Positions 3,893-52,651 are shown, numbered from the stretch's first letter. The stretch: 64,000 bases of DNA from an uncultured Bacteriovoracaceae bacterium (GCA_964012805.1 CAXGUD010000006.1:1-64000), one strand, 5' to 3'. Numbers and translations: made by a program. The notes: generated by a model not told the origin, from the letters alone.

Positions 3893-4024
3893 GTGAGACC
3901 TCCTCGAGGTTTTCTAAATTTTTGATGAAGAAGATTGTTCTACTAAAGAATCTATTATTGTTGAAGGATTTTATAATTTCAATTCAGCAAAGGTTACTCC
4001 AAGGCCTCTTTATTTTAAAAGTGG

Positions 4025-4444: not shown

Positions 4445-4656
4445 TTTAAATTTTCCTTCACCTTGAAAATGTTATTTTTGGGATAATTTCTGCTAACCCT
4501 TGTTTCATATCCTTTGACCTTTTTCAAGGAGCCTTTTTTTAAAAAAAAAGCCAGGGCCCGTTTTTTACAATGAAGATTTAAAAAGGGTGGCCCAACTTTT
4601 TTTAAAATATTGAGAAAAGAGGGTCACCCAATTGGATTTTTATAAAAGGAAAGCCT

Positions 4657-5037: not shown

Positions 5038-5088
5038 GTTGTTCTCCTTATTAGTTAAATTTGGTGATACTTTTTTTAAACAACCTTC

Positions 5089-5104
5089 TTCAAAATTGAT
5101 GCCA
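5089..5104 (-). promoter_or_regulatory. Possible sigma-54 promoter, imperfect -12
   Basis: Minus strand TGGCAT-CAATT-TTGAA against consensus TGGCAC-N5-TTGCW, about 50 nt upstream of the start at 5037. Confidence 0.3.
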
Positions 5105-5213
5105 AAGCTGGAGGGCCAATTTGACCCTCAAAAAGTGGTCTTCATGCTTTTTTTGAGATAAAAAGGAACTGAAGGAAGTTTCTTATAACCTTGCCTGAGT
5201 GGAGGGCGTTTTT

Positions 5214-31632: not shown

Positions 31633-31836
31633 ATGGAAGAAAATGAAGCGAGCACTTGTTCTTGTTCTATTTGTGGAACTAAAAAAGGCCCGTTTTTTAT
31701 TGTCTCGCATGAATTAAAAAGTGTTAAGGAGAATCATCATAGTGTAAGCTTGGTAACAACTAGAATTTGTAAAAGTTGCCAAGTTATTTCTCTTAAATCA
31801 CTTTTAATGGCTGCAAATCTAATTAGAAAAAGTTAG
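31633..31836 (+). CDS. Small putative zinc-ribbon protein
   Basis: CSIC...CKSC pairs; GGGG RBS-like element before ATG 31633. Confidence 0.5.
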   Translation: MEENEASTCSCSICGTKKGPFFIVSHELKSVKENHHSVSLVTTRICKSCQVISLKSLLMAANLIRKS

Positions 31837-31868: not shown

Positions 31869-32966
31869 TTAAGAAATATTCTTAAGTATTTTTATTCTGT
31901 ACATTCCCACTTTTTCTTTTCTTATTAGGTCCTTGTAATCTTTTGTGACGTCTTCATATCCTGTTTCATCTACTTCGGAAACTCGCAAGTAATAACGAAG
32001 GACGACAATACTGTTAGCAGAAAGACATGGCTTTATATTTTGAAGGAAATTTTTTTCAATATTACCTGTAAAGTAAGACGGCACATCACTAAAAGAAAAA
32101 AAATCAATATTATCGATTTCTTTTACTAATTCAAAAATATCTTTTTGCTCGAGGTGTACCGAAGCGTTTCCTTCATTTAAACTTCTTTTTATATCATCAA
32201 AAACTGATGGATCTGCCTCTATAGGAATACCTTCTTTAGTCATAACTTTTCCAAGAAATACAAGTTGAAGGAAAAAGCTTTCTTTTGCGACAATATTGTT
32301 TATAAGGTGGTCAAAGTTATTTAAGTAGTATTGAAAGTGACTTTCTTCAACGTTTTTTTCTATAAAGTGACCTTTATAGAGAAGAGCATTAAAAAAGCTC
32401 TTGTTTCCCATAAGAAAAACAAGAAAACGCCATTTTAAATGCGGAAAATCTCTTTTATAATAATTCAACTGATCTTCAATGGTGGAAAATTCAAAAAGTT
32501 TATCGTGTTGACTTCCCATTATTTTTTTTATGATTTTTGCCACGACTTGAAACGTCTTTTCCCACTTTCCTAAATAAAGGGGGGAAATCCAGTTAATTTC
32601 ATCGTAAAGCCTTGAAAAAAAATGTTTACAATCATTTGAAAGTTCAAGTTCATTAAAAAGAGTATTTCTCTTTCTTGTGTTATCTTCAGGTTCATAAGGA
32701 GGGTATCCCCAGAATAAAAGATAGTCTTCAAGAGAAAATTCTTTGTAGCAGCTTGATCTTAACTCTGTAAGATGGATCTGCTCCTTAGAAAGGTCAACGC
32801 AATATAAATCACTAGGGCCATGACATAAAAGAGGAAGACTTCGACCACCACTACCAGCAACTGCTAATACTTTTTTAGGATTTAATTTCTTAACCATCTC
32901 AACTTCAAATGTTGTATCTTCGTTTCCAAGGGAGTAGTTAAGACTTTTAAAGTATTTTTCGGTCAT
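31869..32966 (-). CDS. BtaA/DUF3419-like SAM-dependent 3-amino-3-carboxypropyl transferase
   Basis: NYSLGNED, VLAVAGSGG, VDLSKEQIHLTELR, GKWEK and FSDVPSY resemble DUF3419/BtaA. Confidence 0.75.
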   Translation of the reverse strand: MTEKYFKSLNYSLGNEDTTFEVEMVKKLNPKKVLAVAGSGGRSLPLLCHGPSDLYCVDLSKEQIHLTELRSSCYKEFSLEDYLLFWGYPPYEPEDNTRKRNTLFNELELSNDCKHFFSRLYDEINWISPLYLGKWEKTFQVVAKIIKKIMGSQHDKLFEFSTIEDQLNYYKRDFPHLKWRFLVFLMGNKSFFNALLYKGHFIEKNVEESHFQYYLNNFDHLINNIVAKESFFLQLVFLGKVMTKEGIPIEADPSVFDDIKRSLNEGNASVHLEQKDIFELVKEIDNIDFFSFSDVPSYFTGNIEKNFLQNIKPCLSANSIVVLRYYLRVSEVDETGYEDVTKDYKDLIRKEKVGMYRIKILKNIS

Positions 32967-35038
32967 GAGTTATCCTCACTTTTTTTAATTGACCAGGTTT
33001 TTAAGTTTTTTATTGCGTGCTCTCTACATAATTCAAATTCTTGATCTGTGACAAAACCCGAATGCCCCATAATTGCGGATAGTCTTACACCATGCTCAGA
33101 TGCCATTTTATCAATTTCTAAAACCTTTTTATAATTAATATTTCTTGAAAGGGTAAAGTTTTCAAGTGTGCCATTAAGTGCAAGAAGAGCTGTCTCAGCA
33201 AGACATGCATAGACCACATTTCCCTCAAGCCCAAGGTCAACTTTGCTATCAATATTGCCAGGAAGTTGAACTTCTCCACTTGCTATAACCATGACATCCG
33301 GTCTTTTAAGGGCGTCTTCCTCCTGAATATCAAAAGGTCGGCTCACATCGCAAATAACACAACCAGGTTTCACCATTTCAATATCTAAGATCTTTCTACC
33401 TTGAGCACTTGTTGTGGTTATAATCAGGTCACAAGTACCAATGAGTTCGGGTTCTGGTGAGGTCGCGATTGTAATTTTTGTTGTAGGGTCTATATTTTCA
33501 ATTTCATCTTTAAGTTCAAGAAGCTTATAGCCTCTAGGTGCAACAAGAATAACTTCGTCCCACCGTGAGGCAAGTACCTTTGCACTAACAGCACCAATGC
33601 TTCCTGTTGCACCGACGACCATAATTTTACCTTTCCATTTTCCATCATTCTTTTTTACTATCCCAATTTTTTGAACAGCTATTTTTGCGGCCCATAAAGT
33701 GGAAGCAGCGGAAAGACTATTTCCAGTTGTAACGGGAATAGGACTTCTTCTTGCTACAGTGACACCAGCATCACCTACAATTTTTGTATAGGCGCCAAGG
33801 CCAATGATATTAGCACCATCTTCTCTTGCCTTATAAGAGAGGTCGACTAATTTTTTATAAATCGTAGATGTGTCTGCCTCAAGAAGTTTTCTAGGAGTAT
33901 CAGGAACTGCATAAATAATACCCTCTACTTCTTTTCCAGTTTTTTCGCTTACGATTCCTTTAATTTTACCATAGAAAAAACCTGGAAAATTAGAGGCCAT
34001 ATTTTCAACTGATCTTTCAAGTGGTTTAGAGTAGCTTTTAAGCCATTTAAGAGATTTTGCCTTAAAAAGCATTTTGGCCGCAAGAGGGTGGATGATAAAA
34101 GCAAACGTTTCTTTTTTATTTGGTGTAGATGTTTTATCATAGCTTTTAATTTCTGGACCTAGTTTACTATCTCCAACCCAAGATAAAATTTCACTTGCAC
34201 TTAAAGGATTATTATTATTTTTTGTAAGCTGAAGAAGTCCCTCATAGAGAGCAAAACTAGAAAATGGAAAGTTTTTTAGAGAAGGTAGGCACGAGATAAT
34301 ATTTTTTACACCATAAGATTTTAATTTTTTTTCTAAAAGAGGGTTCAGAAAGTCTATAATAAGAGTTTTTCCCCTTAGATGTTCTAAGTCAACACTTGAA
34401 ATAGTTGAATTCGTTCCTATAAATACGTGGGAAGAGAAGAATCTACGCAGACCTTTTCCTATGAGCACATCTTTTTCTGAAAAACTAGGAATATTTTTTT
34501 TTCTAAAATTCATTTTTTTTAATAGATTTGAGGAAAGGGATAAAAACGTTTCTAATCTTCTTTTATTTCTAAAAATTGTTGGTAGGTGAAAAAAGTAATA
34601 AGGGTCACAGAGCCTTATGTCGCCAGCAAATTCTTTAATAACATCAAGGCAATGAATAAATTGAGATCCGCAGTAAAAAGAGATTTTTTTATTGGCAATA
34701 AGCTCAGGTTCTCTTAAATAAACTTGTCTTAACATCCAGGGAAGATAAACCTCTTCGAGAATTTCACCGTCAAGTATGGGTGTTTGATCTGAGCTTAATT
34801 TCAGCTGATTAGACGTTGGGTTTACTATATCTTTTCTTGGAAGGTGAATTCTATGTGGAATTCCTGAAAGACAAATGAGATCACATTCACCATCATATTT
34901 TTTAATAAGGTCTTTTGTTAAATTAAAATGAAAACCAGTAGAAAATTGGGTAATCCTAATTTCTTGACCTTCAAATTCAATAACTTTATCAAAGTTTGTG
35001 TTTCTGGATGCATAGGCAAGGGAGAGGATGTGCTTCAT
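32963..35038 (-). CDS. Two-domain protein: uncharacterised N-domain + acyl-ACP-reductase-like (COG5322) domain
   Basis: C-half FAFIIHPL, GLGAYT, TTGN, VGATGSIG, DVSRP and YACLAE (Cys equivalent to the cyanobacterial AAR catalytic Cys). Confidence 0.7.
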   Translation of the reverse strand: MKHILSLAYASRNTNFDKVIEFEGQEIRITQFSTGFHFNLTKDLIKKYDGECDLICLSGIPHRIHLPRKDIVNPTSNQLKLSSDQTPILDGEILEEVYLPWMLRQVYLREPELIANKKISFYCGSQFIHCLDVIKEFAGDIRLCDPYYFFHLPTIFRNKRRLETFLSLSSNLLKKMNFRKKNIPSFSEKDVLIGKGLRRFFSSHVFIGTNSTISSVDLEHLRGKTLIIDFLNPLLEKKLKSYGVKNIISCLPSLKNFPFSSFALYEGLLQLTKNNNNPLSASEILSWVGDSKLGPEIKSYDKTSTPNKKETFAFIIHPLAAKMLFKAKSLKWLKSYSKPLERSVENMASNFPGFFYGKIKGIVSEKTGKEVEGIIYAVPDTPRKLLEADTSTIYKKLVDLSYKAREDGANIIGLGAYTKIVGDAGVTVARRSPIPVTTGNSLSAASTLWAAKIAVQKIGIVKKNDGKWKGKIMVVGATGSIGAVSAKVLASRWDEVILVAPRGYKLLELKDEIENIDPTTKITIATSPEPELIGTCDLIITTTSAQGRKILDIEMVKPGCVICDVSRPFDIQEEDALKRPDVMVIASGEVQLPGNIDSKVDLGLEGNVVYACLAETALLALNGTLENFTLSRNINYKKVLEIDKMASEHGVRLSAIMGHSGFVTDQEFELCREHAIKNLKTWSIKKSEDNS

Positions 35039-36093
35039 CCTTCACCCCCTTCGAGGGCCTTTTCCCTAATTGGTTTAAAAATGTTTTCTTTGTATTTATT
35101 ATAATCACTTGTTTTTTCGCCCCTTAAATCTCTATTGAAATTTCTTTGATCATAAATGCATTTAGAGTACATATAGAGCAAAAGTTCTCGTGGAATTCCT
35201 AAAAGTTCCACCAGATGGGGACTAAACTTGGTATTAGGTAAAGGAAACGGCTTTGGATTTATTCCAACTGCTTTAAAACAATCTTTAATAAACTCATCAA
35301 TTGTTGGAAGATTCGTACCAACCACATGATATGTTTTTAAAGGTAAATCATCCTGATCATTTTTAATTCCCTGGATAACAAAATATTTTGCGTGATCAAC
35401 AGGAATAATAGGGAAAATACTATCCTTGTTGTAAGGAATTGGGATAACAGGCAGAGAATTTAGAATATCTTTTTTATCCTTATTTTGAAGAAGAAACTCT
35501 GTGAAATAATAAGGCCCATCAACCTTAGGGATATGACCTGTTTTTGAGTCTCCTATGATAACTCCTAGTCTATAAATTCTTCTTTTAATAGATTTTTTAA
35601 AATCCCAATTCTGAACCTGAAATTCTGCAAAATATTTAGTTTCCGCATAACTATTGGAGAAAGATTGACCTTCATCGAGAACACTTTCGTAGTACGTTCC
35701 TGAGTGTGAACCACTGACAGCAATTGTGCTTATATAATGAAAAACATCTACATTTGGGCAAAGACCTGCAAAATAGAGAAGATTTTGTGTTCCAATAACA
35801 TTATGGGAATAACATTCAGATAAATTTCCTTCTATGTCATAAAAAGCTGCAATGTGAATGATTGAGTTAATCTCTTCTTTTATATCCTGATATTCTTTAG
35901 CATCCTCAATAACATCCATGTTCAGGAGGTCCCCAACTATGAAGGATATCTTTTTTTCATTTGGGAATAAGCCTTTTGCTTTTTGTAAGCTTTGTTTTCT
36001 TATGAGAAGGTAAATGTGATCGAAGTGATCTATTAGATCCTTTAGGATATACCCACCCAAAAAACCTGTAGAGCCTGTCAGTAAAGCTTTCAC
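35035..36093 (-). CDS. Extended SDR, fatty-acyl/thioester-reductase-like (NAD_binding_4)
   Basis: TGSTGFLG, HIAA, YAETK and GDSKTGHIPKVDGPYYF; GTG start overlaps the upstream TGA. Confidence 0.8.
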   Translation of the reverse strand: MKALLTGSTGFLGGYILKDLIDHFDHIYLLIRKQSLQKAKGLFPNEKKISFIVGDLLNMDVIEDAKEYQDIKEEINSIIHIAAFYDIEGNLSECYSHNVIGTQNLLYFAGLCPNVDVFHYISTIAVSGSHSGTYYESVLDEGQSFSNSYAETKYFAEFQVQNWDFKKSIKRRIYRLGVIIGDSKTGHIPKVDGPYYFTEFLLQNKDKKDILNSLPVIPIPYNKDSIFPIIPVDHAKYFVIQGIKNDQDDLPLKTYHVVGTNLPTIDEFIKDCFKAVGINPKPFPLPNTKFSPHLVELLGIPRELLLYMYSKCIYDQRNFNRDLRGEKTSDYNKYKENIFKPIREKALEGGEG

Positions 36094-37055
36094 GTTAATG
36101 TGACCTCTGCAACCCAATCAACAAGATCCTTACTTGGATCAACTGCATAAACTGTAAGGGCCTTTCTCTCAACTTTGATTTCCCATCGGTTTGATGGGGC
36201 AAAAACTTCACCATCCCCAAAAAACGAAATCATTTTCTCAGGATTATTATTAATGATTTCTAGCTCGCTTGTTTCGAAGGATTTGAAATGGGGATCATTT
36301 TGAGGCAGATTTCCGTTTGAAAGCTCTAAGAGGGCTTTCAAAAGATCTTTTTTGTATGGATGAGTAAACAGGCTTACGTTGAAAGACCCATCAGAATTAT
36401 TTGTTTCAGGTGCGACTATAAAAGAACCGGCCAAAGTAGATTGGTTATTGATTAAGACAGCAACAGCTTTTTCATGGGAGTGAAAGTTAGGGGACTTTAG
36501 TTCTAGATCATAGTAGTCCAGTTTATCGGTTAAAATTTCATAACCAAGAAATAAAGAATAAATTTTACTTCCGGAGAGTTGCATGACTTTTTTGAAAAGG
36601 GGGTAGTCTTGTCGGAGGTCATTTATTTTAGCGGCAACTATACCACCAAGACCAATACCACCATTGGTTGCCATAAATTGCCCATTTATATTGATGAGGT
36701 CAATTTTTTTCTTAGTTTCAAGTCTTATACATTGAATAATTTGTTCGATATCTTTTGGGTCACTTAGTTCGCTTGCAAGGTCATTTGCAGTGCCCGCAGG
36801 AATAACAAGTAGACCAACTTCTGTTTTTGCTATATTTTGAATAACCGTATTTGCTGTTCCATCACCACCAACACTAATGATAGCATCAACTTTATCCTCG
36901 ATGTCTTCTTTAAGGTTTTGATTAAGTTCCTCAATGGACGAAGGTGTTTTAAAAATGAGATGACTTCTAAAAAGCTGTCTAGTTATTTTCTTCCTCCAAT
37001 GATCATAAGATGTATTGGAGGCCCTTTTGTTGAGGTAAATAGTTATCTTTTGCAT
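36090..37055 (-). CDS. Diacylglycerol-kinase-family lipid kinase (YegS/DgkB/BmrU type)
   Basis: GGDGT, IPAGTANDLA, IDL and DGE motifs; ATG at 37055 preferred. Confidence 0.85.
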   Translation of the reverse strand: MQKITIYLNKRASNTSYDHWRKKITRQLFRSHLIFKTPSSIEELNQNLKEDIEDKVDAIISVGGDGTANTVIQNIAKTEVGLLVIPAGTANDLASELSDPKDIEQIIQCIRLETKKKIDLININGQFMATNGGIGLGGIVAAKINDLRQDYPLFKKVMQLSGSKIYSLFLGYEILTDKLDYYDLELKSPNFHSHEKAVAVLINNQSTLAGSFIVAPETNNSDGSFNVSLFTHPYKKDLLKALLELSNGNLPQNDPHFKSFETSELEIINNNPEKMISFFGDGEVFAPSNRWEIKVERKALTVYAVDPSKDLVDWVAEVTLT

Positions 37056-37234
37056 AAATTGACCCTTTTGAGGGTTATCAAACGGTCTTTTCCCTATACT
37101 CAAATCGGTTAAGGCATTTAAAAGATTGAAGAAAAAATTGCATCATTTCTTAAAAAAATGAGGCCTGTTACTATGATTGCTATAATAGGTATTCTTTAAA
37201 GGGATACTTGGAACTTATTCACAAAAGTTGACTT

Positions 37235-37906
37235 ATGGACACCATCTTTAGTTGTCAGGAACTGACTTTTTCTTATAGTTTTGGAAATGTAAATATTGAG
37301 GCCTTAAGAGGGGTTTCAATGGATTTTCAAAAAGGAAAATTCTACTGTCTATCGGGCCCTTCAGGTTCTGGAAAAACAACTTTTCTTAACGTCCTTGGAC
37401 TTATTGAAGATATTCAAGGGGGAGATATTGAATTTGAAGGAAAAAGGTTTAGAAACCTAAAAGAAGAAGACAAAAATTATATAAGAAGAAATCAGGTCGG
37501 ATTTATTTTTCAACATTTCAATCTCTTTCCAGTCTTAAGTGCTGAGGAGAATATTGAGTTTTTTCTAGTAAGGCAAGGTGTACCAAAAAAAGAACGTACA
37601 GATCTTGTTCATAAGGCGCTAAAGGACGTGGGACTTTGGGACCATAGAGATAAAAGGCCGCTTGAAATGAGTGGCGGACAAAGACAGAGAGTCGCCGTGG
37701 CAAGGGCCCTGACGAAAAGGCCTCTTGTTATTATTGGTGATGAACCTACGGCAAGCCTTGATCAAAAAACAGGAAAAGAAATTGTAAACCTTCTTAAAAA
37801 CTTAAGTGATGAATATGGGGCTTCAATTATTTTATCTAGCCACGATACGATGGTTCATGAATTTGCTGAGGAGCTTGTTATTCTAAAAGATGGGAGGTTA
37901 ACGTAA
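37235..37906 (+). CDS. ABC transporter ATP-binding protein (LolD/MacB-like)
   Basis: GPSGSGKT, GFIFQHFNL, MSGGQRQRVA, DEPT and SHD. Confidence 0.92.
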   Translation: MDTIFSCQELTFSYSFGNVNIEALRGVSMDFQKGKFYCLSGPSGSGKTTFLNVLGLIEDIQGGDIEFEGKRFRNLKEEDKNYIRRNQVGFIFQHFNLFPVLSAEENIEFFLVRQGVPKKERTDLVHKALKDVGLWDHRDKRPLEMSGGQRQRVAVARALTKRPLVIIGDEPTASLDQKTGKEIVNLLKNLSDEYGASIILSSHDTMVHEFAEELVILKDGRLT

Positions 37907-39111
37907 TGCTTTTTTCACTGGCCTTTCGAAACTTAGCAAGAAATTTTAGAAGAACATTAGCAATGGTCTTAACTATAGGAATAGGAACTGGTGCCCTTTT
38001 GGTTTTTAAGGGATTTAATGTTGGGATCATGAACCAGTATAGAGATAATACAATTCATGCTCGCTACGGTCATGGTCAAATCAATATGAAAGGTTATCAT
38101 AACTCCGTTTATGAGAAGCCTTGGAAGCATTGGATAGAAGATTATGACTCGCTTAAAAAGAACCTCTCAAAAGTCCCTGGTGTTAAACTTCTTTTTCCAA
38201 GAGTCAATTTCTTTTCGCTTTTAACCAACGGGGAAATGAACATAAGTGGAAAGGGTCAAGGAGTCGATGGTTCGGCTGAATTTTCCTTTTTTAATACCCT
38301 TAATATTGTTGAAGGTAAAAATTTATCAGATGAGAAAGAAGGAATCATTTTAGGAAAAGGACTTGCCAGGGCCCTTAATGCAAAAATTGGTGATCGGATA
38401 ACTGTTTTGGGAAGTACTATTTATGGAAGCATGAATGCTGTTGATACATACGTAACAGGAATTTTTCATACAGGCAGTAAGGAGTTTGACGATAGTGTTT
38501 TTAGAATTCAACTTGACCTTGCACACCTTTTACTTGATACGAAAAAAGTTGAATCCGTTTCCCTAGGCATGAAAGGCCTCGGCTTATGGAAAAGTATAGA
38601 AGACTTTGTTGCTGATAGTGATATAGATCTGGAAAGTATTCCTTTTCATGTTTTGGATAAGGTATATTATCAACACTCAGTTGACTGGTTAGATGCTCAA
38701 TTTGGCGTTATTCAAATTATTATTTTAGTCATTGTTATCTTAGGTATTTTTAATACAGTTTCAACATCAATTCTTGAAAGGCGTCAGGAAGTAGGAAACT
38801 TAAGGGCGAATGGTGAAAGTAGGATTGAGGTTTTAAAGCTTTTTAGTAACGAAGGTTTTTTAGTTGGTGTTTTTGGGGCCATTTTTGGTATTATTGTTGT
38901 ATACGCAATAAATTTAAGTTTTTTAAAAGACGGTATTTTAATGCCTCCGGCGCCTGGTTTAACTAGGCAATTCCACGTTAAAATTGAGTTACAAGAATGG
39001 ATGGCCGTTCAGACATTTATTATTGGGACAGTAACGAGTTTTGTGGCCACATTTTTGGCCTCTCTAAGAGTTATCAATCAAAAAATATCTGATCTTTTAA
39101 GATCTGTTTAG
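37906..39111 (+). CDS. ABC transporter permease (LolE/FtsX-like)
   Basis: LAFRNLARNFRRT, one TM + large periplasmic domain + three TMs, ERRQEVGNLRANG. Confidence 0.9.
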   Translation: MLFSLAFRNLARNFRRTLAMVLTIGIGTGALLVFKGFNVGIMNQYRDNTIHARYGHGQINMKGYHNSVYEKPWKHWIEDYDSLKKNLSKVPGVKLLFPRVNFFSLLTNGEMNISGKGQGVDGSAEFSFFNTLNIVEGKNLSDEKEGIILGKGLARALNAKIGDRITVLGSTIYGSMNAVDTYVTGIFHTGSKEFDDSVFRIQLDLAHLLLDTKKVESVSLGMKGLGLWKSIEDFVADSDIDLESIPFHVLDKVYYQHSVDWLDAQFGVIQIIILVIVILGIFNTVSTSILERRQEVGNLRANGESRIEVLKLFSNEGFLVGVFGAIFGIIVVYAINLSFLKDGILMPPAPGLTRQFHVKIELQEWMAVQTFIIGTVTSFVATFLASLRVINQKISDLLRSV

Positions 39112-39127
39112 GATAAGGAAGGTTCAA

Positions 39128-40054
39128 ATGCTAAAAATCGTAAGGGTATTTTTATTTTTAGGGTTATTTGCTTTTTTATCAAACCCTTTGGTTTCTCAAG
39201 AAAAGGAGAGTGAGGCGAGTAGTGAACCTATAAAGGAAGACAAAGTAGATGTATCACCAAAAGATGAAAAAATAGGAGACGTATCTGGAGAAGTTTCTGA
39301 AGAAGATGGTGATAAAAATGCAGCTGAAGAAAAAGTTTCAGCACCTATCGTCACTGAAGAAGTTCCTGAAGACGTTTCCGGTCGGTTACCAGCATCTGTA
39401 GAAGGTCCATCTGCAGAAGATATTTTAAAAAGAGCTGATGAAGTACGCAATCCTTCTGACTCATTTTTTATGAAGGTTAAAGTTACAAATAAAGGGGAAG
39501 AAGAGAAACCTAGTCAATTCGACGTTTCAATAAAAGGTAATAATAGAACTTTAATTAAAACTCTTCTTCCTAAGAGGGATAGAGGAAGAAACCTTCTGAT
39601 GCTTGATGAAAATATGTGGGTTTTTATTCCTAACTTAAAAAGAAGTGTTAGAGTTGGACTTTCTCAAAAATTAACGGGTCAAGCTGCTAATGGGGATATA
39701 AGCCGAATGAGGTGGAGTGGAGACTATACTCCAAAGCTTTTAAAAGAGACGAAAAAGAGTTGGTTACTTCACCTACAGGCGAAAAAGAAAGGTTTAACGT
39801 ATGAACAACTTAAGGTCCTTATATCTAAAAAAGGATTCAGGCCCAGACAGGCCCATTTGATGAGTGTTTCTGGTAAACTTTTAAAAAAGATTTATTACCA
39901 GGGGTATAAAAAATTGGCAGGTCGTTTAAGGCCTAGTCAAATGAACATAGTTGACGCTATAAATGATAATAAGAAGTCACTTATAGAAATCGAAGAGATG
40001 GAAGCAAGGGATTTTCAAACTGCCCTTTTTAATAAGAGGAACCTCGCTGAATGA
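39128..40054 (+). CDS. LolA-like outer-membrane lipoprotein-sorting protein with acidic N-terminal extension
   Basis: Signal peptide, E/D/S-rich linker, ILKRAD, GRNLLMLDENMWVFIP and GQAANGD. Confidence 0.8.
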   Translation: MLKIVRVFLFLGLFAFLSNPLVSQEKESEASSEPIKEDKVDVSPKDEKIGDVSGEVSEEDGDKNAAEEKVSAPIVTEEVPEDVSGRLPASVEGPSAEDILKRADEVRNPSDSFFMKVKVTNKGEEEKPSQFDVSIKGNNRTLIKTLLPKRDRGRNLLMLDENMWVFIPNLKRSVRVGLSQKLTGQAANGDISRMRWSGDYTPKLLKETKKSWLLHLQAKKKGLTYEQLKVLISKKGFRPRQAHLMSVSGKLLKKIYYQGYKKLAGRLRPSQMNIVDAINDNKKSLIEIEEMEARDFQTALFNKRNLAE

Positions 40055-41259
40055 TTCCAAAAAAAGGTCTTCTTTGGACCTTTATAAGTTGTCTTTTTCT
40101 AATAGGTGTCTCAAAAGCTGAACGAGGTACTGTTAAGATTGGTGGTGAGTTCGGTATGAGATCATCTTATCTCTATGGGGAAGATGATTTTTCTTTAAAG
40201 AGGCCCTACGCTCACGTAAAAGCCCATTTTAAAAATTTTGGGAATGATGAGGTTACACAAGAAGTGTCTATCTCCTCAAGGTTTTTGTTAGATGACGAGG
40301 CCTCTAAATCAGATACTTTGACAGAAGCTACGTACAAAATTGTGAGAGAAAACTCTACTTTCACATTTGGTCTTCAGGAAATAGGGTGGGGAGAAACTTT
40401 TGGTATTTATCCTCTCGACTTTGTAAATGCCAGAAATTTTGAAGATCCTTTTATTTCAGATTTAAAGTGGACGAGAATTCCTGTGTTTGCTCTCAATTAT
40501 GAGTATCTTGGAGAAAAGTTTAGTGGACAATTAATCGCTATTCCAAAACCTAAAAATAGCATATTTCCCTCTAAAGGAGATACCTTCGACACAACCCCTA
40601 CGAGTTTTGCCCATCTAGAAAGAGAAGATATGGCCACCCCTCAACTCATTTACGATTCGGAAATTGGTGGCCGGCTTGGTTATCTTTTTGACTTTGGTCT
40701 AGATGTCGACTTTTATTACTTTTATCACCGGAATCGAAACTTAGCCTTGGATATAAAAAATGGTACGACCTTGAGTCCTGTATTTAAACAAATTCATTCA
40801 ACAGGATTAAGTAGTACTTTTGCAACAGGGGATTTTGTTTTTCGCTTAGATTTTGTAAATCATTTTAATAGACCTGTTAATGATCCAGAAACACTTGCTG
40901 TTAAATATCTAAATAATATGATTGGTGTTTTCGGTTTTGACTTTTCAACCGAGAGTAAATTCCAACTTGGCCTTCAATACCATCATGATTCTTTTACAGA
41001 GTTTTACTATAACTGGGTAAGTTCACAAATGAGCTTCCCTTTATTTGGTGATTGGATGGAATTAAGTTTTTTTGTTTTTTGGGGACTTAATAACCAAGAT
41101 CTTTGGTATCAGCCGACCATGAAGCTTTTTATGAGTGATCAATTATCAATGTCAATTTGGGCAGACATCATTGAGAAACAAGAACCTAAAAAGGCAGGTC
41201 AGATTAGCAGCTTTTCAGAGCATGATAGAGTCTTTCTTGATGTTAGTTGGCAATTTTAG
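40051..41259 (+). CDS. Putative outer-membrane beta-barrel (DUF1302-like)
   Basis: Signal peptide, GLQEIGWG...LDFVN, amphipathic strands, C-terminal DVSWQF; ATGA overlap with the upstream gene. Confidence 0.65.
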   Translation: MIPKKGLLWTFISCLFLIGVSKAERGTVKIGGEFGMRSSYLYGEDDFSLKRPYAHVKAHFKNFGNDEVTQEVSISSRFLLDDEASKSDTLTEATYKIVRENSTFTFGLQEIGWGETFGIYPLDFVNARNFEDPFISDLKWTRIPVFALNYEYLGEKFSGQLIAIPKPKNSIFPSKGDTFDTTPTSFAHLEREDMATPQLIYDSEIGGRLGYLFDFGLDVDFYYFYHRNRNLALDIKNGTTLSPVFKQIHSTGLSSTFATGDFVFRLDFVNHFNRPVNDPETLAVKYLNNMIGVFGFDFSTESKFQLGLQYHHDSFTEFYYNWVSSQMSFPLFGDWMELSFFVFWGLNNQDLWYQPTMKLFMSDQLSMSIWADIIEKQEPKKAGQISSFSEHDRVFLDVSWQF

Positions 41260-41418: not shown

Positions 41419-43014
41419 ATGTGCGGAATCATTGGCCTTTTCGAAAAATCATCAGTTTCAAGTCACAACGGTGTTTCACCGAATCATAATAGCGCAAAGA
41501 AATTGGTTAAGGCCCTCAAACTTCTTCAGCATAGGGGGCAAGATGCAGCTGGGCTTCTTTCGTCTCGAATAAAAAACGACCACTTCGTTGTAAAGAAAGG
41601 CCCTGGTTTTGTATCAGAAGTTTTTTCAGGCCTGCCTGAAAAAGATTTTTGTGAGCTCGATGGTCAAATTCTACTAGGTCATACCAGGTATGAAACAGTG
41701 GGAGGCCCTTCAGAGTTAAATATACCACCTTTCCAAGCTGTACATTCTGACACAAATTTTAGCGAAGGTGCGGTTAACAACTCTTCGGAAAAAGAAAAAA
41801 CTCCCTCTATGGGGATTGTTCACAACGGGAATATTGTTAATTATTTTTCTCTTAAAGAAGAGCTGGAAGGGGCTTCCGAAGGACAAAGGACCTTCTTGAA
41901 AGGTCAAAATGATGGTGAATTAATGCTTCGACTCTTTCAATCTTTTTTTATGGAAGAGTCTCATTCTCCCAAAACTTTTAATAGGCGCTCTCCATTTTTG
42001 ATTATCCAAACATGTATGAGACGGCTGTCTGAAAAAGTTGAGGGGGGATATGCACTCCTTCTGATTATTGAGGATGTGGGACTTGTGGCCTTCCGAGATC
42101 CTTATGGAATCAGACCCCTCGTTTATGGAAAGGATAAAAAAGGTCATATTTGTTTTTCTTCTGAAACGATTGCTTTAGAAGGAATAGGTTATCAATTCGA
42201 GAGAGAAGTTAGACCTGGTGAAGTCATTTTTATCGGTTTTAATGGTACCTTCAAGTCGGCCAAACTCGCTTTTAGCGGCTATCAAAAAAAAGATCCTATA
42301 AAAGAAGCGCCCTGCATGTTTGAACGAATTTATTTCGCTTCTTCAAAAAGTCAGGTTCAAGGCGCGTTGGTTAAAAATACCCGGCGTCGTTTAGGAAGGG
42401 TTCTTGCGGAAAAAGTATTGGAAAAGAATAAGTTCTTTGACCATTATGACGCAGTTTCGGCTATCCCGGAAACAGGCCTTGACGCTGCTTATGGAGTGGC
42501 CGAATGTTTAAAACTACCTATGGTTGAAGGCATTCTTAAGGTGCAAAAAAGTGGCAGGACTTTTATTTTACCGGGAAATAAAAGAGGCACTGCTTTAAAA
42601 CAAAAGTTCATTGTCAGGGAATCAGAGATAAAGGGTAAGAGGCTTCTTTTGGTTGATGATAGTTTGGTGAGGGGAGCGACTCTTAAAAGTCTTATCTTTG
42701 AGCTGAAGAAAAAGGGGGCCAAAGAACTCTCTTTGGCATTTTCTTGCCCACCAATACAATTTGGTTGCTTTTATGGAGTTGACTTCCCGGAAAAAAATGA
42801 ATTGCTTGCCAACCAAAAAAGTCATCAAGAAATGACTACTTTTCTTGGTGTAAATGACCTTTTCTTTCTCAACGAAGGTGATTTATTAAATGTTTTCGAT
42901 GGACGTGACCATTGTTTTGGCTGTGTCACAAAAAAATATCCGACTAAGCTCAAAGAGGGGATTGCTTTTGCCCGAAAAAGGACGGCTGAAAAAAGTATTT
43001 TAGGAATAGTTTAG
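41419..43014 (+). CDS. purF: Amidophosphoribosyltransferase (Fe-S type)
   Basis: N-terminal MCG, LQHRGQD, GHTRY, HNGN, VDDSLVRG and four Fe-S Cys. Confidence 0.95.
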   Translation: MCGIIGLFEKSSVSSHNGVSPNHNSAKKLVKALKLLQHRGQDAAGLLSSRIKNDHFVVKKGPGFVSEVFSGLPEKDFCELDGQILLGHTRYETVGGPSELNIPPFQAVHSDTNFSEGAVNNSSEKEKTPSMGIVHNGNIVNYFSLKEELEGASEGQRTFLKGQNDGELMLRLFQSFFMEESHSPKTFNRRSPFLIIQTCMRRLSEKVEGGYALLLIIEDVGLVAFRDPYGIRPLVYGKDKKGHICFSSETIALEGIGYQFEREVRPGEVIFIGFNGTFKSAKLAFSGYQKKDPIKEAPCMFERIYFASSKSQVQGALVKNTRRRLGRVLAEKVLEKNKFFDHYDAVSAIPETGLDAAYGVAECLKLPMVEGILKVQKSGRTFILPGNKRGTALKQKFIVRESEIKGKRLLLVDDSLVRGATLKSLIFELKKKGAKELSLAFSCPPIQFGCFYGVDFPEKNELLANQKSHQEMTTFLGVNDLFFLNEGDLLNVFDGRDHCFGCVTKKYPTKLKEGIAFARKRTAEKSILGIV

Positions 43015-43077
43015 GTCAAATATATAAAAGTATAGAATATTAAAGCTTTAAATCCAGATCTAAAGGTAGGTGAAAAA

Positions 43078-43809
43078 ATGAAAGGTATTGTGTTGTATGG
43101 AAGTCAAAGTGACAGAGTTTTTTATGAAGAGTGTTTGGAAAAATTAAAACCTCATTCAGAGTTTATTTTTGAAGTTTTGAGTGCCCACAGAGATGCCGAA
43201 AAGTTGCGCTTATTATGTCAAAAAATGGACGCACAATATGTCATTGCTGGAGCTGGATTGTCCGCAGCATTGCCTGGCTGTGTGGCATCGCAAACAAAAG
43301 TTCCTGTTTTTGGAGTACCGCTTCCCTCATGCTTTGGTGGACTTGATGCCTTTTTGACATCGCTACAAATGCCTAAGGGTACGCCAGTAGCAACATGTGC
43401 TCCTTACAACGAAGATTCGATAATAAAATTTATTGAAAACATTGGGGATGATAGATGGGCTAAAGAAACAAGAGTTAATATTTACGTTGATGCTCTTGTA
43501 CAGCCCTATGAGTATGTTGATAAGGTTCTTAAAGATACAATCAATTTATCAGAAAAAGAAAACATCCAATTAGAAATCACCAATAAATATAACCCAGACT
43601 GCTGGAATATCCTATTAGTCCACCAAGAAAAAGAAATTGTCCTAAAGCCAAATTGTTTGCATGTTCCAATGATGAATAAACAGACGGTGGATAATCCAAG
43701 CAGGGCCCTAAGTCTTTTTAGTTTAGCTGGAAATGGAGGACTTTGGTTTGGAGTGAATAACTGCATTAATGCGCTTCGCTGGCTTAAAAGAGGCTTTGAG
43801 TCTTTTTAG
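43078..43809 (+). CDS. purE: PurE-family AIR carboxylase/N5-CAIR mutase with C-terminal extension
   Basis: GSQSD, SAHR, AGAGLSAALPG, PVFGVP and QMPKGTPVA. Confidence 0.88.
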   Translation: MKGIVLYGSQSDRVFYEECLEKLKPHSEFIFEVLSAHRDAEKLRLLCQKMDAQYVIAGAGLSAALPGCVASQTKVPVFGVPLPSCFGGLDAFLTSLQMPKGTPVATCAPYNEDSIIKFIENIGDDRWAKETRVNIYVDALVQPYEYVDKVLKDTINLSEKENIQLEITNKYNPDCWNILLVHQEKEIVLKPNCLHVPMMNKQTVDNPSRALSLFSLAGNGGLWFGVNNCINALRWLKRGFESF

Positions 43810-43851
43810 AAAAAAGTTTAGGGCTCTTCTTTTTTATTTGAGGGAGGAAAT

Positions 43852-45162
43852 ATGAGTTTTGTAAGTAATGAAAGTAGCAAGCATTTAAATAAAATGATTC
43901 CAGATGTTTACCGACTTGGCTCCGTAAAGAAAATTAGGGGTGTAGAGGGATGTACTCCTTGGCTTTTTGATTTCTCCGATCATTATTCTCTTTTTGATTG
44001 GGGAAAAATGCCGGATGAGCTTCCCTTAAAAGGGAAGAGTCTTGCTCTTATGAGCCTGGCCATTTATGACTACTTAGAAGACTCTAACTCTTGGGAATCA
44101 TTAGATGATTTTCCTGGTCATATAGACTCGAAGTCGATCACTCATTCTTGTTTAGAGTGGCTGAAGAAAAACGGACTTAAAACACATTTGAAAGGTGCTT
44201 GGAATGAAAAAGGGCCTATCAATCTTAAAAATAATAAAGAGTGGGAAAGGTTAGAAACCAAAGGTCCTCTTTATTTGGATTTTACTCCTTTTAAAGTTCA
44301 AAAACCGAAATGGAGTGATGACTTAAGTTTCTGGGATTACTCTTGTTTTAAAAAACCTCAATTAAAAGGTTTCGTTCCTTTGGAAGTTGTTTTTCGTTTT
44401 GGCCTTCCTGAAGGAAGCTCGTTTCGAAAAAGAATCAAAGATAGACCTTACTTGGAGGAGGTTTTACAAACTCTTCCCGAGTCTTATTCAAATAAATTTA
44501 TGGAAGATCTATGTAATGGCCAATATGATAATGGGCTTTGGGACTTTCCAATTATAGAGTTTTCGACCAAGTGGGAGCCTGAAGACCGTTTTGTAACCTA
44601 CGGAGAAGCCCAAGAGATATCAGGTCTAAGTGATGGAGAATGGGCGGCTTTTATCGAGTGGAACCGGCTTGTGGCCATTAAATTGCGTTCCTTTTTTAAA
44701 AAAATTGACCTTGTGCTTTGGGATGGGAAATGTGAGTGGGGGGCCACAAACGAGGAAGGGCCATTTCCTGGTCAAAGGAATTTTGTTTTGGCCGACAGTT
44801 TGGGACCTGATGAGCTCCGTTTGACTTATAAGGGGAAATCCCTTTCTAAAGAAATTTTAAGAACTTCTTATAGAAAAACAAAATGGGCCAAGTATGTGTC
44901 ATTGGCCAAAGAAGAATCAAGGTCGAAAGGACTGAAGGATTGGAAAGACTATTTTTATAAATCTAATTTTCCAGTGAATTCAGAACCACCTTCTTTAGAG
45001 AAAGAGCATAAAAATGTTTTTTCAATGATTTATCAGACTTTATCTAATCATGTTTGTAAACAAGTCTATCAAAAAGTGCCTTTCCCTGAAGCCATGGCTT
45101 TAGATGATTTAGTAAGGGCCATATCAAGCCTGGAGTCTAATAAGTCGGAGGGGGATGAGTGA
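43852..45162 (+). CDS. purC: SAICAR synthetase (long form)
   Basis: GSVK, SLFDWGKMP, PLEVVFR, FSTKWE, DGKCE and ADSLGPDELR. Confidence 0.9.
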   Translation: MSFVSNESSKHLNKMIPDVYRLGSVKKIRGVEGCTPWLFDFSDHYSLFDWGKMPDELPLKGKSLALMSLAIYDYLEDSNSWESLDDFPGHIDSKSITHSCLEWLKKNGLKTHLKGAWNEKGPINLKNNKEWERLETKGPLYLDFTPFKVQKPKWSDDLSFWDYSCFKKPQLKGFVPLEVVFRFGLPEGSSFRKRIKDRPYLEEVLQTLPESYSNKFMEDLCNGQYDNGLWDFPIIEFSTKWEPEDRFVTYGEAQEISGLSDGEWAAFIEWNRLVAIKLRSFFKKIDLVLWDGKCEWGATNEEGPFPGQRNFVLADSLGPDELRLTYKGKSLSKEILRTSYRKTKWAKYVSLAKEESRSKGLKDWKDYFYKSNFPVNSEPPSLEKEHKNVFSMIYQTLSNHVCKQVYQKVPFPEAMALDDLVRAISSLESNKSEGDE

Positions 45163-46514
45163 GCTCTTTAAATAAAATAATAATTATTGGCTCTGGTGGG
45201 AGAGAGCAGGCGATGGCCTTTAAGTTGGCCCAATCAAGTGAAGTCAGCTTAATTTATGTATGTCCTGATCCAAAAACACCCTTTCCTTCGGAGAAAATAA
45301 AAGGGCTGGATTTGAATCCAAATCATTTTGAGGAATTAGGTCATTATGCCTTGGAAGAGGAAATAGACCTTGTTGTTGTTGGTCCAGAAGTTCCCCTTGT
45401 AAATGGTGTTGTCGACTTTTTGGAAAGGAAAGGCATTTCTGTTTTGGGGCCCTCAAAAGAGGGGGCTAAGTTAGAGGGGTCAAAGCATTTTTCTAAACAG
45501 CTAATGAAAGAATCTGAAATCCCAACTGCAAAATTTAAGAATGCCTCTTCTTACGAAGAAGGACTTGAGTACCTTGAGAAGGTCAATGAATCGGGCTTGG
45601 TTGATTTAGGTGTTGTTATTAAGGCCGACAAATTAGCGGCAGGGAAAGGGGTATTTCTTTGTAACTCAGAAAATGAGGCCAGGGATGTCCTTTTTAAAAT
45701 TATGAAAGATGAGTCCTTTGTAATTAAGGATAATAAAGTCGTTATCGAGGAAAAACTTTTTGGAAAAGAAATTTCAGCCTTCGCTCTTTGCGATGGCGAC
45801 TCCTTTTTAACTCTTGGGTTTGCAAGGGATTACAAGAGGTTGAAAGATTGTGATGAGGGACCCAATACAGGCGGAATGGGAGGCTTCTCTAACCCTGAAC
45901 TTGTAAATGAGATCCTTCAAAAGGAAATTGAGGAAAACGTTTTTTCTAAAACCTTAAACTCGTTGAAAAGTCGTGGAATTCATTACAAAGGAATTCTGTT
46001 TGCGGGCCTTATGATAGACCCAAGTGGTGTGGTTAATGTTCTTGAGTTTAATGTTAGGATGGGAGATCCAGAAGCTCAAATCCTCCTACCCCTTGTGAAA
46101 GAAGATTTATTTCCTCTTTTTAAGGCCGCTGCAGATGGTGAATTGTTAGAGCTTATAAAAAGAAGACCTCCATCTTTAAAAAATAAAGTTCACATGAAAA
46201 GTGAGAGCTCTGTTCATGTTGTTATGGTTTCAGAAGGTTACCCTATTTTAGAAAAGGGAAGAAACATGAAGCTAGAACAGCCTATCAGCTTTCCTCAAGT
46301 CAATCAGAGAAAAGAGGCCTTAACTTATTGCTTTTTAAGTGGTGCTATGAAGGAAAATGAAGGGAATAGACTTTTAAATAGTAGTGGTCGAGTTTTGGGA
46401 ATCACAGGTCTTGGGTTAAACCTTAAAGAAGCTCGCGAAAGGGCCTATGAAAGAGTTCACCAAACTAATTTTGAAGGGGCTCACTATAGAAGTGATATTG
46501 CGCTTAATCTTTGA
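45159..46514 (+). CDS. purD: Phosphoribosylamine--glycine ligase
   Basis: GSGGRE, VGPEVPL, LEGSK, GPNTGGMG and EFNVRMGDPE. Confidence 0.95.
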   Translation: MSSLNKIIIIGSGGREQAMAFKLAQSSEVSLIYVCPDPKTPFPSEKIKGLDLNPNHFEELGHYALEEEIDLVVVGPEVPLVNGVVDFLERKGISVLGPSKEGAKLEGSKHFSKQLMKESEIPTAKFKNASSYEEGLEYLEKVNESGLVDLGVVIKADKLAAGKGVFLCNSENEARDVLFKIMKDESFVIKDNKVVIEEKLFGKEISAFALCDGDSFLTLGFARDYKRLKDCDEGPNTGGMGGFSNPELVNEILQKEIEENVFSKTLNSLKSRGIHYKGILFAGLMIDPSGVVNVLEFNVRMGDPEAQILLPLVKEDLFPLFKAAADGELLELIKRRPPSLKNKVHMKSESSVHVVMVSEGYPILEKGRNMKLEQPISFPQVNQRKEALTYCFLSGAMKENEGNRLLNSSGRVLGITGLGLNLKEARERAYERVHQTNFEGAHYRSDIALNL

Positions 46515-46534
46515 GAAGGTCATTGGGAAAAAAA

Positions 46535-47122
46535 ATGAAAGCCGTTATTCTAGCGAGTGGAGAGGGAACAAATGCTGAAAATATTGTTTCCTTTTTCCAA
46601 AATAAAAAGGAATGTCTTGAAGTCCTAGGAATCATTAGTGATAAGGCGGGTTCTGGAGTCCTTGAGAGGGCAAAAGGTTGGGATATTCCAACGGCACTTA
46701 TTGAAAAAAAATCAATGAAAAGGTCAATGCATGAAAGAGAAATATACCGCCAGGTAAAGGAGTGGGGAGGTCATTGGCTCCTTCTGGCAGGGTACATGAG
46801 AATACTAGGGCCACATTTTATTTCCAGATTTTACGATGAAAAAAGAGGCCATTCGAGAATAATTAACATTCACCCCTCTTTGCTACCATCTTTCAGAGGC
46901 TTAAGGGCCTATGAGAGGGCCTTTGAGGCGAAGGCCCCTTTTTCGGGAGTAAGCGTTCATTTTGTTGATGAGGGAATGGACACCGGTCAGCTTATCCTTC
47001 AAAAAAAATTCAACCGCCTTCAAGAAGACAGCTTTGAAGATTTTAAAAAGAGGGGACAGCACTTAGAGCATATTGCTTATATTGAGGCCATATTTAAAGT
47101 ACTTAAAGGGGATTACAGGTGA
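46535..47122 (+). CDS. purN: Phosphoribosylglycinamide formyltransferase
   Basis: ASGEGTN, LAGYMRIL, NIHPSLLP and VDEGMDTG; an alternative TTG start at 46511 overlaps purD. Confidence 0.93.
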   Translation: MKAVILASGEGTNAENIVSFFQNKKECLEVLGIISDKAGSGVLERAKGWDIPTALIEKKSMKRSMHEREIYRQVKEWGGHWLLLAGYMRILGPHFISRFYDEKRGHSRIINIHPSLLPSFRGLRAYERAFEAKAPFSGVSVHFVDEGMDTGQLILQKKFNRLQEDSFEDFKKRGQHLEHIAYIEAIFKVLKGDYR

Positions 47123-50100: not shown

Positions 50101-50163
50101 CATAAAGTCGTTTTAAATCAACATTTAGATAAGATGATTGAGGCCTATAAAAAGGGAGTCTAA
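47119..50163 (+). CDS. purL: FGAM synthase subunit PurL with N-terminal PurS-like region
   Basis: PGVTDN, QSWSEHCKHK, KVETHNSPS, DNGAGG, SESQERM and SGKDSMKN. Confidence 0.95.
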   Translation: MSLLRLEIKPIEETILGENGFLYEEIPFYILDLPSNALPSLANLEEVFGDPVLNDVYIDDYDHFWDKKKPKWVIEVSFKPGVTDNRGLCAKEALNLSSLSCSFAKSGTLYFFFEDHKELKEYANPLIQKAELFSYEDFKKRSRFQHIEKIDEVNFEDLNSEVEVISLDRPLEELVKLSEERCLALNVNEMSFLKDYFNKKDVFEERKAQGLPKNPTDVELEILAQSWSEHCKHKIFKATIKYKEDLSSYEDSNSEHPFKKLGNQKIEGVYQSFIQKSTKDIIEERGITWAKSVFKDNAGIVSFENKVDLCFKVETHNSPSALDPYGGALTGILGVNRDILGAGLGSRPIGNTNVFCLGLPHSLSSSEKKKAPKGLLHPRSILKGVHKGVMDGGNKSGIPTVNGAIHFDRDYAGKPLVFCGTVGVLPKVLADGRDTSLKETQVGDRIFMVGGAIGKDGLHGATFSSLELNESSPTSAVQIGDPLTQKRVTDFLLKARDLGLYSSLTDNGAGGLSSSVGEMAEFTGGATLDLSKCPVKYEGLKAWELMISESQERMTFAVPPSKSLAFKDLGKKYGVSVTDIGYFHDKGALEVFHLKERVAFLDLRLIHDLLPPMKLEALWKGPRKRNEWWKDPNEASQKQFFEEEKVEDILLKLLSSPNIVSKEKWVRQYDHEVLGASHIKPFVGKKGDGPSDSSSLWLYPHGGEESSVIQIGCGLAPKLSLWDPYVMAQYAVDEAVRNVVAHGGNIDQCALLDNFCWPDPVVSEKNQEGLFRCGDLVRASHGLYDITVTYGTPLVSGKDSMKNDFRGLNASGEPLKISVLPTLLVTAFSKSTLEHTVTSDFKNQGDLIYLLGDHGQGLAGSEVSDFFIFEDQEAQKKMEKLPSINLIKNKVLYRAIYKALGRGLIESCHDISEGGLAVALVESAIGGRLGFTLDEVEWLGLSNLIGKLFGEGPGRFVVSIAKENEKEFLSVFKELPHSKLGTVSSLPQVIFKNGHKVVLNQHLDKMIEAYKKGV

Positions 50164-50166
50164 GTC

Positions 50167-50985: not shown

Positions 50986-50988
50986 TTT

Positions 50989-52605: not shown

Positions 52606-52651
52606 TATGATGCAATTTGATTGTGTAATCTGATAAGGAAGGGAGTCAAAA

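Follow-up and report, generated by a model that had tools for sequence, protein, structure and literature searches.

In phytol salvage by VTE5, VTE6 and HPT, an alcohol is converted to its phosphate and then its diphosphate, from which the chain is moved by UbiA transfer. Bacterial synthesis of alkyl (ether-type) lipids is incompletely understood, and few studies deal with the cell-envelope chemistry of predators. Aminocarboxypropyl transfer has its precedents in BtaA and MccD (PMC10491745). Here we analyse a locus (positions 31869 to 41259) in a 64,000-nucleotide stretch of DNA, referred to as the window, from an uncultured, marine Bacteriovoracaceae bacterium of predatory type (GCA_964012805.1, CAXGUD010000006.1:1-64000). 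Four minus-strand genes, encoding a YegS/DAGK-family kinase (DAGK), two reductases (FAR and the AAR-fusion protein) and a DUF3419 transferase, face a transporter-like unit of four genes. The eight genes are real and conserved, and the system is larger than first reported.

The gene set and its second module

We searched 301 genomes of the phylum. The AAR-fusion query matched 82 of them; five genomes with a weak match to the C-terminal domain only (G193, G230, G280, G283 and G293) were removed, and among the remaining 77 there are four with partial or split matches. All 77 also contain DUF3419 and a dikinase, which are found in 91 and 98 of the 301 genomes, respectively, while 201 genomes have none of the three. 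If the genes were independent, 7.6 three-way genomes would be expected, a contrast which is overstated as related genomes are not independent. Within 15 kilobases (kb) of the AAR-fusion gene we found DUF3419 in 68 and the dikinase in 57 of the 77 genomes; 18 further dikinases are on other contigs, and in G009 and G072 the dikinase module lies at a distance of more than 1 Mb.

Gene neighbourhoods were compared at 41 distinct loci, which are 20-kb stretches from 40 of the 77 genomes plus a close relative, Halobacteriovoraceae SP87 (L071); L072 was dropped as a duplicate of L035. A single-protein query of the genome contigs found two loci only. Neighbours of the AAR-fusion gene are FAR and DAGK (40 loci each), DUF3419 (37), the dikinase (27), a UbiA-like gene (26, in most cases together with an AMP-ligase and an N-formyl- or GNAT transferase), a formyltransferase (18), the permease (13), and GNAT, LolA-like and barrel genes (12 each). 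Gene order is shuffled among families; the set itself stays together. The original prediction, that the genes remain linked in other genomes, is supported by these data. Its limitation of the system to four enzymes and an exporter is not, given the dikinase in 77 of 77 genomes with UbiA-like, AMP-ligase and N-acyl- or formyltransferase genes beside it. As four to five further enzyme genes, located elsewhere in the genome under study, travel with the set, expression of the four genes may yield an intermediate.

The recurrent neighbours form a second module with an OleC-like AMP-ligase (PRK09274-like), the UbiA-like protein and a 900-residue dikinase of the RPH (rifampin phosphotransferase) type, accompanied either by genes for a formyltransferase and an alpha/beta hydrolase or by tandem GNAT genes, and sometimes by a P450. 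Among 43 loci, 18 carry the formyltransferase and 19 GNAT, none both and six neither; this exclusion marks two module lineages and therefore one or a few events. In the genome under study (G000), contig C102 carries on its minus strand the genes for the AMP-ligase (3735-5141), the UbiA-like protein (2869-3747) and the dikinase (123-2867). GNAT is on contig C123, and the DNA past the dikinase stop codon is 93% identical over 118 nucleotides to the start of that GNAT gene. In L048, L104, L106 and L113, the AMP-ligase and UbiA occur as one natural fusion.

The dikinase has the three-domain order of RPH with the catalytic Lys, Arg, Arg-Glu and His. The RPH residues K21, R106, R691/E692 and H868 are kept in 31 of 31 rows, which had been selected on the His motif. 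PMC4844700 provides the RPH catalytic residues and describes hydrophobic acceptors for such enzymes. The score against the rifampin phosphotransferase model NF041857 is 329.2 bits (cut-off 999). For the UbiA-like profile, the best solved match is DGGGP synthase (6M31, E 1.6e-9). PF01040 matches reach 56.8 bits, several being below cut-off or absent, and the RxxDExKD motif is present in rows that were picked on that motif.

Two other groups of genes were observed near the set. A family of 210-245 residues without a Pfam or NCBIfam match (c16) adjoins the cluster at six of the 41 loci; its members are found in L046, L049, L053, L055, L067, L074, L077, L085 and L104 and, apart from the cluster, at C1:1103-2245 of G000. 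Genes resembling ynbA, ynbB and ynbC (CDP-alcohol phosphotransferase, cytidylyltransferase and hydrolase-methyltransferase) lie near the cluster at L037:1298-7543 and in L050, L058, L061 and L168.

The features of the locus are listed in Table 1. The arrangement originally described, four overlapping minus-strand genes facing an exporter unit, was found again with all open reading frames (ORFs), three 4-nucleotide overlaps and the gap between the units. The GTG start of FAR sits inside the DAGK stop codon (GTGA), and the FAR/AAR-fusion and AAR-fusion/DUF3419 junctions are ATGA overlaps. In the facing unit, ATPase and permease are joined by TAATG coupling, and the LolA-like and barrel genes by an ATGA overlap. 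The domain calls were upheld by Pfam matches above cut-off for DUF3419, NAD_binding_4, DAGK_cat, ABC_tran, FtsX/MacB_PCD and LolA_like. No window gene of the set reached an equivalog cut-off in the NCBIfam scan.

SP87 has the same arrangement, with an AAR-fusion protein that is 95% identical. The six gap-free genes differ between the two by 78-257 synonymous versus 7-39 non-synonymous codon changes per gene. All 30 bins of the region are covered, without an indel, by contigs from four marine runs of four studies; this cover consists of pieces, none of those listed spanning the whole stretch. The cluster genes are single-copy in G000, except for a FAR paralogue, generic ABC matches and weak kinase matches. 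The FAR paralogue (43% identical; C1:125523-126638, minus strand) stands alone, outside any cluster. In the divergent region, promoter-like sites occur at chance level (30 versus 31.1 expected), as do the hits of the terminator scan, and no Rfam match was found.

Table 1. Positions of the genes and of the divergent region in the window.
Feature	Position	Strand	Description
DUF3419 (BtaA-family) transferase	31869..32966	-	365 residues; S-adenosylmethionine (SAM)-dependent; predicted aminocarboxypropyl transferase
AAR-fusion	32963..35038	-	691 residues; two-domain reductase
FAR	35035..36093	-	352 residues, GTG start; NAD_binding_4 extended short-chain dehydrogenase/reductase (SDR); predicted aldehyde/acyl-thioester reductase
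DAGK	36090..37055	-	321 residues, ATG start; YegS/DAGK-family lipid kinase; predicted alcohol kinase
Divergent intergenic region	37056..37234	.	179 nucleotides, read from sequence
ABC ATPase	37235..37906	+	223 residues; LolD/DevA type; PF00005
Permease	37906..39111	+	401 residues; LolC/E-MacB type; PF02687+PF12704
LolA-like periplasmic carrier	39128..40054	+	308 residues; PF17131
Predicted outer-membrane beta-barrel	40051..41259	+	402 residues; DUF1302-like; ESM Atlas features

On either side of the locus lie genes of other kinds. An ORF of 67 residues with two CxxC pairs (window 31633-31836, plus strand) lies behind a GGGGA ribosome-binding-like site and converges on the DUF3419 gene; it has a 78% identical copy in L071 and is single-copy in G000. 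A purine biosynthesis operon (window 41419-53653, plus strand; purF-like by Pfam, the rest by sequence reading) follows directly after the barrel gene. It is outside the recurrent neighbours of the relatives, L071 excepted.

Enzymes of the locus, variant front ends and transporter

Homology to AAR is limited to residues ~310-680 of the AAR-fusion protein, residues 1-300 being a separate extra domain. Over residues ~305-680, the structure model (pLDDT 88.8, pTM 0.58) matches AAR 6jzq (Z 31.9, rmsd 3.0, 325 aligned) and the carmabin TAD 9e4s (Z 31.5, rmsd 3.9, 349 aligned); the next row has a Z of 14.8. C612 aligns with the catalytic Cys of AAR and is invariant in 52 rows, and the motifs TTGN (437-440) and GATGSIG (476-482) are present. 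The cut-off of the cyanobacterial AAR model TIGR04058 is missed (60.7 versus 449.7 bits), the protein not being single-domain. The PigE match is confined to PigE positions 2-363 of 837, and there is no fused class III aminotransferase. TADs are placed at the end of a nonribosomal peptide synthetase (NRPS) module, whereas the AAR-fusion is a discrete protein with no NRPS in its loci. The TAD preprint describes the catalytic Cys and the TTG motif and also reports a cluster of discrete TAD homologues.

For residues 1-300 there was no Pfam match, no PDB sequence match and no invariant column; they are scarcely tested by whole-model fold searches. At E up to 0.001 this domain has 740 relatives, among which standalone proteins of 300 residues are numerous, and three of the ten clusters looked up contain members called ‘quinate 5-dehydrogenase’ at NCBI. 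A metagenome survey yielded 80 AAR-fusion loci, of which 41 are at least 9 kb long and 29 of these 41 lack the core. In the core-less loci, WS/DGAT is near the AAR-fusion in nine and a FAR-like gene in five of 29, and iron-dependent alcohol dehydrogenase (Fe-ADH) genes adjoin it in some metagenome loci. These neighbours point to fatty-alcohol supply as the general role of the fusion. Tandem AAR-fusion paralogues were seen in L123, L137 and L154 together with WS/DGAT, Fe-ADH-SCP2, phasin/PhaR-type and patatin-like genes, probably a wax-ester storage locus. An apparent FAR-AAR gene fusion in L052 (1130 residues) was rejected as it has no FAR match and is merely a long open frame.

FAR (PF07993, 126.7 bits) resembles the N-terminal half of the two-domain reductase PRK07201 (NF005539), matching positions 1-270 of 657 only (167.5 versus 549 bits) and having no C-terminal SDR. 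G7/G10/G13, S122, Y149 and K153 are invariant in 40 of 40 orthologues. FAR homologues in one genus without an adjacent reductase (L073-L077) were set aside, being 26-29% identical, with no cluster context and orthology not established. DAGK matches PF00781 (64.5 bits) and PF19279 and has the YegS/DAGK motifs GGDG, GTxND and DGE, with a score below every equivalog cut-off. GGDGT (63-67) is invariant in 40 of 40 orthologues, GTAND (88-92) and FGDGE (279-283) in 39-40 of 40. An alcohol is its predicted substrate class.

The DUF3419 protein matches PF11899 with 109.1 bits (cut-off 28.2) over profile positions 3-335 of 385. Its model (pLDDT 93) has a class I SAM-transferase fold; no close solved relative was found (best Z 12.1, rmsd 3.9, 212 aligned) and no solved BtaA match. 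Bacteriovorax stolpii has a recorded DUF3419 protein that is 48% identical to this one. In a 45-row DUF3419 tree, plasmid-borne proteins from Xylella and Deefgea (35% identical) nest among the AAR-type rows. The Xylella gene lies with an iron redox enzyme, an AspH hydroxylase and GNAT (L177:7618-12269), the Deefgea gene with an iron redox enzyme and SpeD (L178:8249-10892). We regard these as a different small-molecule cluster type using the same transferase clade. The SpeD neighbour fits aminopropyl-type chemistry and shows that the DUF3419 acceptor need not be a lipid.

Fourteen genomes have DUF3419 but no long AAR-fusion, and 11 of them were fetched. In L078, L079 and L081, which lack AAR, FAR and DAGK, there is an HMGR-like and APH-kinase fusion with an acyl carrier protein (ACP), an AMP-ligase and an AurF-like enzyme. 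On plasmids of Brevibacillus laterosporus B9 and Roseinatronobacter S2 there are genes for an HMGR-like protein, UbiA, the dikinase, DUF3419, GNAT and an AMP-ligase, and one for a 439-residue membrane protein whose motifs hint that it might be a kinase. After the Brevibacillus cluster, an intact ORF (L179:18881-19834) has, by impression from its sequence, the look of an ETX/MTX2-type insecticidal protein. In the HMGR paralogues the catalytic E/K/D/H motifs are intact, but Asn takes the place of an Arg which in solved HMGRs belongs to the T/S-R-H/F motif; this Arg binds hydroxymethylglutaryl (HMG). A second, housekeeping HMGR is encoded elsewhere in four of four fusion genomes tested. In the DUF3419 tree, the HMGR-type label requires two changes, with L078 among the AAR-type rows on a long branch. 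An HMGR-like enzyme and a kinase in place of AAR, FAR and DAGK support a conserved slot, ‘reduce thioester, then phosphorylate’, with unrelated fillers. This exchangeable slot supports the logic of thioester, alcohol and phosphate that had been put forward for the four enzymes.

An alternative mevalonate route (HMGR, kinase, dikinase and OleC-like lactone formation or decarboxylation) was rejected as the main interpretation because of the complete, separate mevalonate operon of G000 on contig C5, the second HMGR in the fusion genomes and the occurrence of AAR and FAR in the same slot. Contig C5 of G000 also holds a separate cluster (C5:102512-110239) that resembles oleABCD and includes genes for KAS, ACP and an FAD oxidoreductase; these labels come from reading the sequence.

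The ABC ATPase scores 181.8 bits against TIGR02211 (cut-off 307.75) and the permease 95.7 bits against TIGR02212 (cut-off 362.45). The carrier matches PF17131 (130.5 bits, residues 137-307) and not the LolA family PF03548; its N terminus reads as signal-peptide-like, and it has an acidic linker. The barrel has no Pfam match, shares 225 of 256 ESM Atlas features with DUF1302 clusters (0.98) and ends in WQF, the last residue being Phe. Members of the close LolA-like clade, which score at least 156 bits, occur in 42 genomes, 38 of which also have the AAR-fusion; in 35 the LolA-like gene is no more than 15 kb distant from the core. The transporter, first taken as an integral part, is a linked but optional accessory: its clade occurs in 38 of the 77 genomes, and its scores lie below the canonical LolCDE cut-offs. 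Its direction would be export, and its cargo is probably a lipid, not a lipoprotein. For the Pseudomonas DUF1302/DUF1329 genes, the authors offer export and ester-catabolism readings in their preprint (10.1101/2020.07.04.188060). A tie of AupA/AupB to DUF1302/DUF1329 was not used, the terms being absent from PMC5989066.

A proposed pathway and its alternatives

From family chemistry and gene context, on which all steps are based, we tentatively propose that the minus-strand four provide the precursor as one half of a larger set, completed by the dikinase, UbiA-like, AMP-ligase and GNAT genes on C102 and C123, and that the product is an exported, alkyl-anchored lipid with a SAM-derived homoserine head. 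Using Cys612, the AAR-fold domain would turn an acyl-thioester into the aldehyde by reduction, the NAD_binding_4 enzyme would reduce the aldehyde to the alcohol, and the DAGK-family kinase would convert this to the alkyl monophosphate. The RPH-type dikinase would put on the second phosphate to give the alkyl diphosphate, and the UbiA-like membrane enzyme would transfer the chain, in the simplest case with formation of an ether, to a putative acceptor made ready by the AMP-ligase. DUF3419 would add the aminocarboxypropyl group, GNAT or the formyltransferase may cap an amine, and the ABC-permease-LolA-like-barrel unit, where present, would move the product outward.

A number of points weigh against this pathway. 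UbiA chemistry uses allylic donors, a saturated primary alkyl diphosphate being a poor one, so that the donor model requires a 2-enyl chain or an SN2 mode. In the structure model the fold match to TAD, a putative amidation domain, is equally good as that to AAR. Several loci do not fit: L073-L077 (one genus) and L083 have DAGK and the core with no adjacent reductase, a ceramidase being beside DAGK in L073, L075 and L076. AAR is missing from L080, where FAR and DAGK are present, no reductase of either type is in view in L085, and L086-L088 carry the dikinase and UbiA without DUF3419. The DUF3419 relatives of Xylella and Deefgea lie in non-lipid contexts (iron enzymes, GNAT or SpeD), and for the 439-residue membrane protein neither Pfam nor NCBIfam nor PDB gave a match. 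By the LolA-like query, 39 of the 77 AAR-fusion genomes had no match in the exporter clade, among them most of those from the host's family.

In a variant which we consider rather unlikely, the alkyl monophosphate would itself be the acceptor: the UbiA-fold enzyme would attach a soluble group activated by the dikinase, and the resulting alkyl-phospho-X diester would be decorated by DUF3419 and GNAT. This variant does not require an allylic chain and fits the supply-slot evidence equally well. Rv3806c, with a UbiA-like fold, takes a lipid monophosphate (decaprenyl phosphate) as acceptor (PMC10994848), and MccD puts aminocarboxypropyl on a phosphate (PMC10491745). However, the UbiA profile matches DGGGP synthase and chlorophyll synthase, not Rv3806c (E up to 1), and it is hydrophobic acceptors that RPH-type enzymes act on (PMC4844700). 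Both variants of the UbiA step, the tentative donor model and the less likely acceptor model, have the product built on a fatty-alcohol phosphate, which we therefore consider probable.

It is likewise doubtful that the cluster makes a small specialised metabolite, for which the AMP-ligase would activate an aromatic or amino acid, the reductases would form an amino alcohol, DUF3419 a homoserine ether, and UbiA would prenylate with an isoprenoid diphosphate. The mollusc bur-ox system shares formyltransferase, adenylation, four-electron reduction, ACP transfer and P450 (PMC11869996). P450 is a frequent accessory gene of the clusters here, a mevalonate operon is present on C5 of G000 itself, and the distribution is patchy (77 of 301). 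Against this reading, the AAR-fusion pairs with wax-ester synthases elsewhere, the HMGR-type variants have an ACP and a second AMP-ligase, and the kinase belongs to a lipid-kinase family.

We give little credence to the original prediction in its strict form, where the four enzymes alone make an exported alkyl-phospho-homoserine or alkyl-homoserine ether and the dikinase/UbiA module is separate. The four genes do make up a coupled operon by themselves, both here and in many relatives. The second module is distant in G009 and G072, and L086-L088 have the dikinase/UbiA pair but no DUF3419. The complete co-occurrence (77 of 77) and linkage (57 of 77) of the dikinase speak against separation, as does the finding that DUF3419 accompanies the dikinase/UbiA module also where other enzymes stand in for the reductase trio. 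Salvage of prey lipids, in which the barrel, LolA-like and ABC proteins import lipid alcohols or sphingoid bases that the kinase traps and dehydrogenases oxidise or remodel, suits a predatory host group, the ceramidase adjoining DAGK in L073, L075 and L076, and the importance of DUF1302/DUF1329 genes for Pseudomonas growth on fatty esters (10.1101/2020.07.04.188060). It is improbable since ABC systems of the LolCDE/MacB type export or extract their cargo, an export hypothesis is also reported in that Pseudomonas study, and the cluster is rich in building enzymes.

Returning to the donor pathway, a wider generalization is speculative: predatory Bdellovibrionota might make non-isoprenoid alkyl ether lipids by archaeal logic, using DAGK and RPH homologues, a DGGGP-synthase-like UbiA, an N-acylated homoserine head and Lol-like export. 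If this is true, the pathway would be a new bacterial ether-lipid route that occurs in several phyla and has three reductase/kinase front ends which can replace one another. A separate conjecture is that the phosphatidylthreonine reported from Bdellovibrio might be phosphatidylhomoserine. The pathway would assign functions to the mis-named families ‘PEP synthase’ (PRK06241.2) and ‘quinate 5-dehydrogenase’, to non-BtaA DUF3419 proteins, to the non-mevalonate HMGR paralogue and to the PF17131/DUF1302 transporter. As the cluster is a defined gene set in cultured non-pathogens, the question is directly testable.

Comparison with known systems

In agreement with the claim that no characterised pathway has this combination, our literature search, which had subscription journals outside its scope and saw its sources in part, found no description; an earlier description of the cluster or of the lipid structure may exist. 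The newness lies in the pathway as a combination, every enzyme being of known fold.

With BtaA of the BtaA/BtaB pathway to diacylglyceryltrimethylhomoserine (DGTS), the transferase shares the DUF3419 family, the SAM-transferase fold and, likely, aminocarboxypropyl transfer. Unlike BtaA/BtaB, DUF3419 is linked here to reductases, kinases, UbiA and an AMP-ligase; no methyltransferase (BtaB) is among the recurrent neighbours of the 41 loci, no genome-wide search for BtaB having been made. The transporter has the ABC ATPase, FtsX/MacB permease, LolA-fold carrier and barrel in common with LolCDE-LolA and DUF1302/DUF1329 systems, but differs from LolCDE in its single permease, its PF17131 carrier and its scores below the LolCDE cut-offs.

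The mollusc bur-ox pathway to bursatellin has formylation, adenylation, reduction to an alcohol, an ACP ether and P450 in common with the clusters; unlike them it is NRPS-based with a Nat-type ACP transferase and has no kinase, dikinase or UbiA. The dikinase shares ATP-grasp and substrate domains, the C-terminal His swivel and the catalytic residues with RPH-Lm, PigC and RedH, but is found in a biosynthetic context and far below the RPH cut-off. Cyanobacterial AAR (6JZQ), the PigE reductase domain and the CarI TAD have the fold, catalytic Cys, TTG motif and nucleotide-binding GxxGxxG of the AAR-fusion. It differs from these in its extra N-terminal domain of 300 residues, the absence of an attached aminotransferase or NRPS, and its FAR-type SDR and kinase partners. 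The proposed sequence of alcohol, phosphate, diphosphate and UbiA transfer is like that of archaeal ether-lipid synthesis with its DGGGP synthase (6M31). Unlike the archaeal route and phytol salvage, it would use a fatty and not an isoprenoid chain, other kinase families, and extra SAM and acyl steps.

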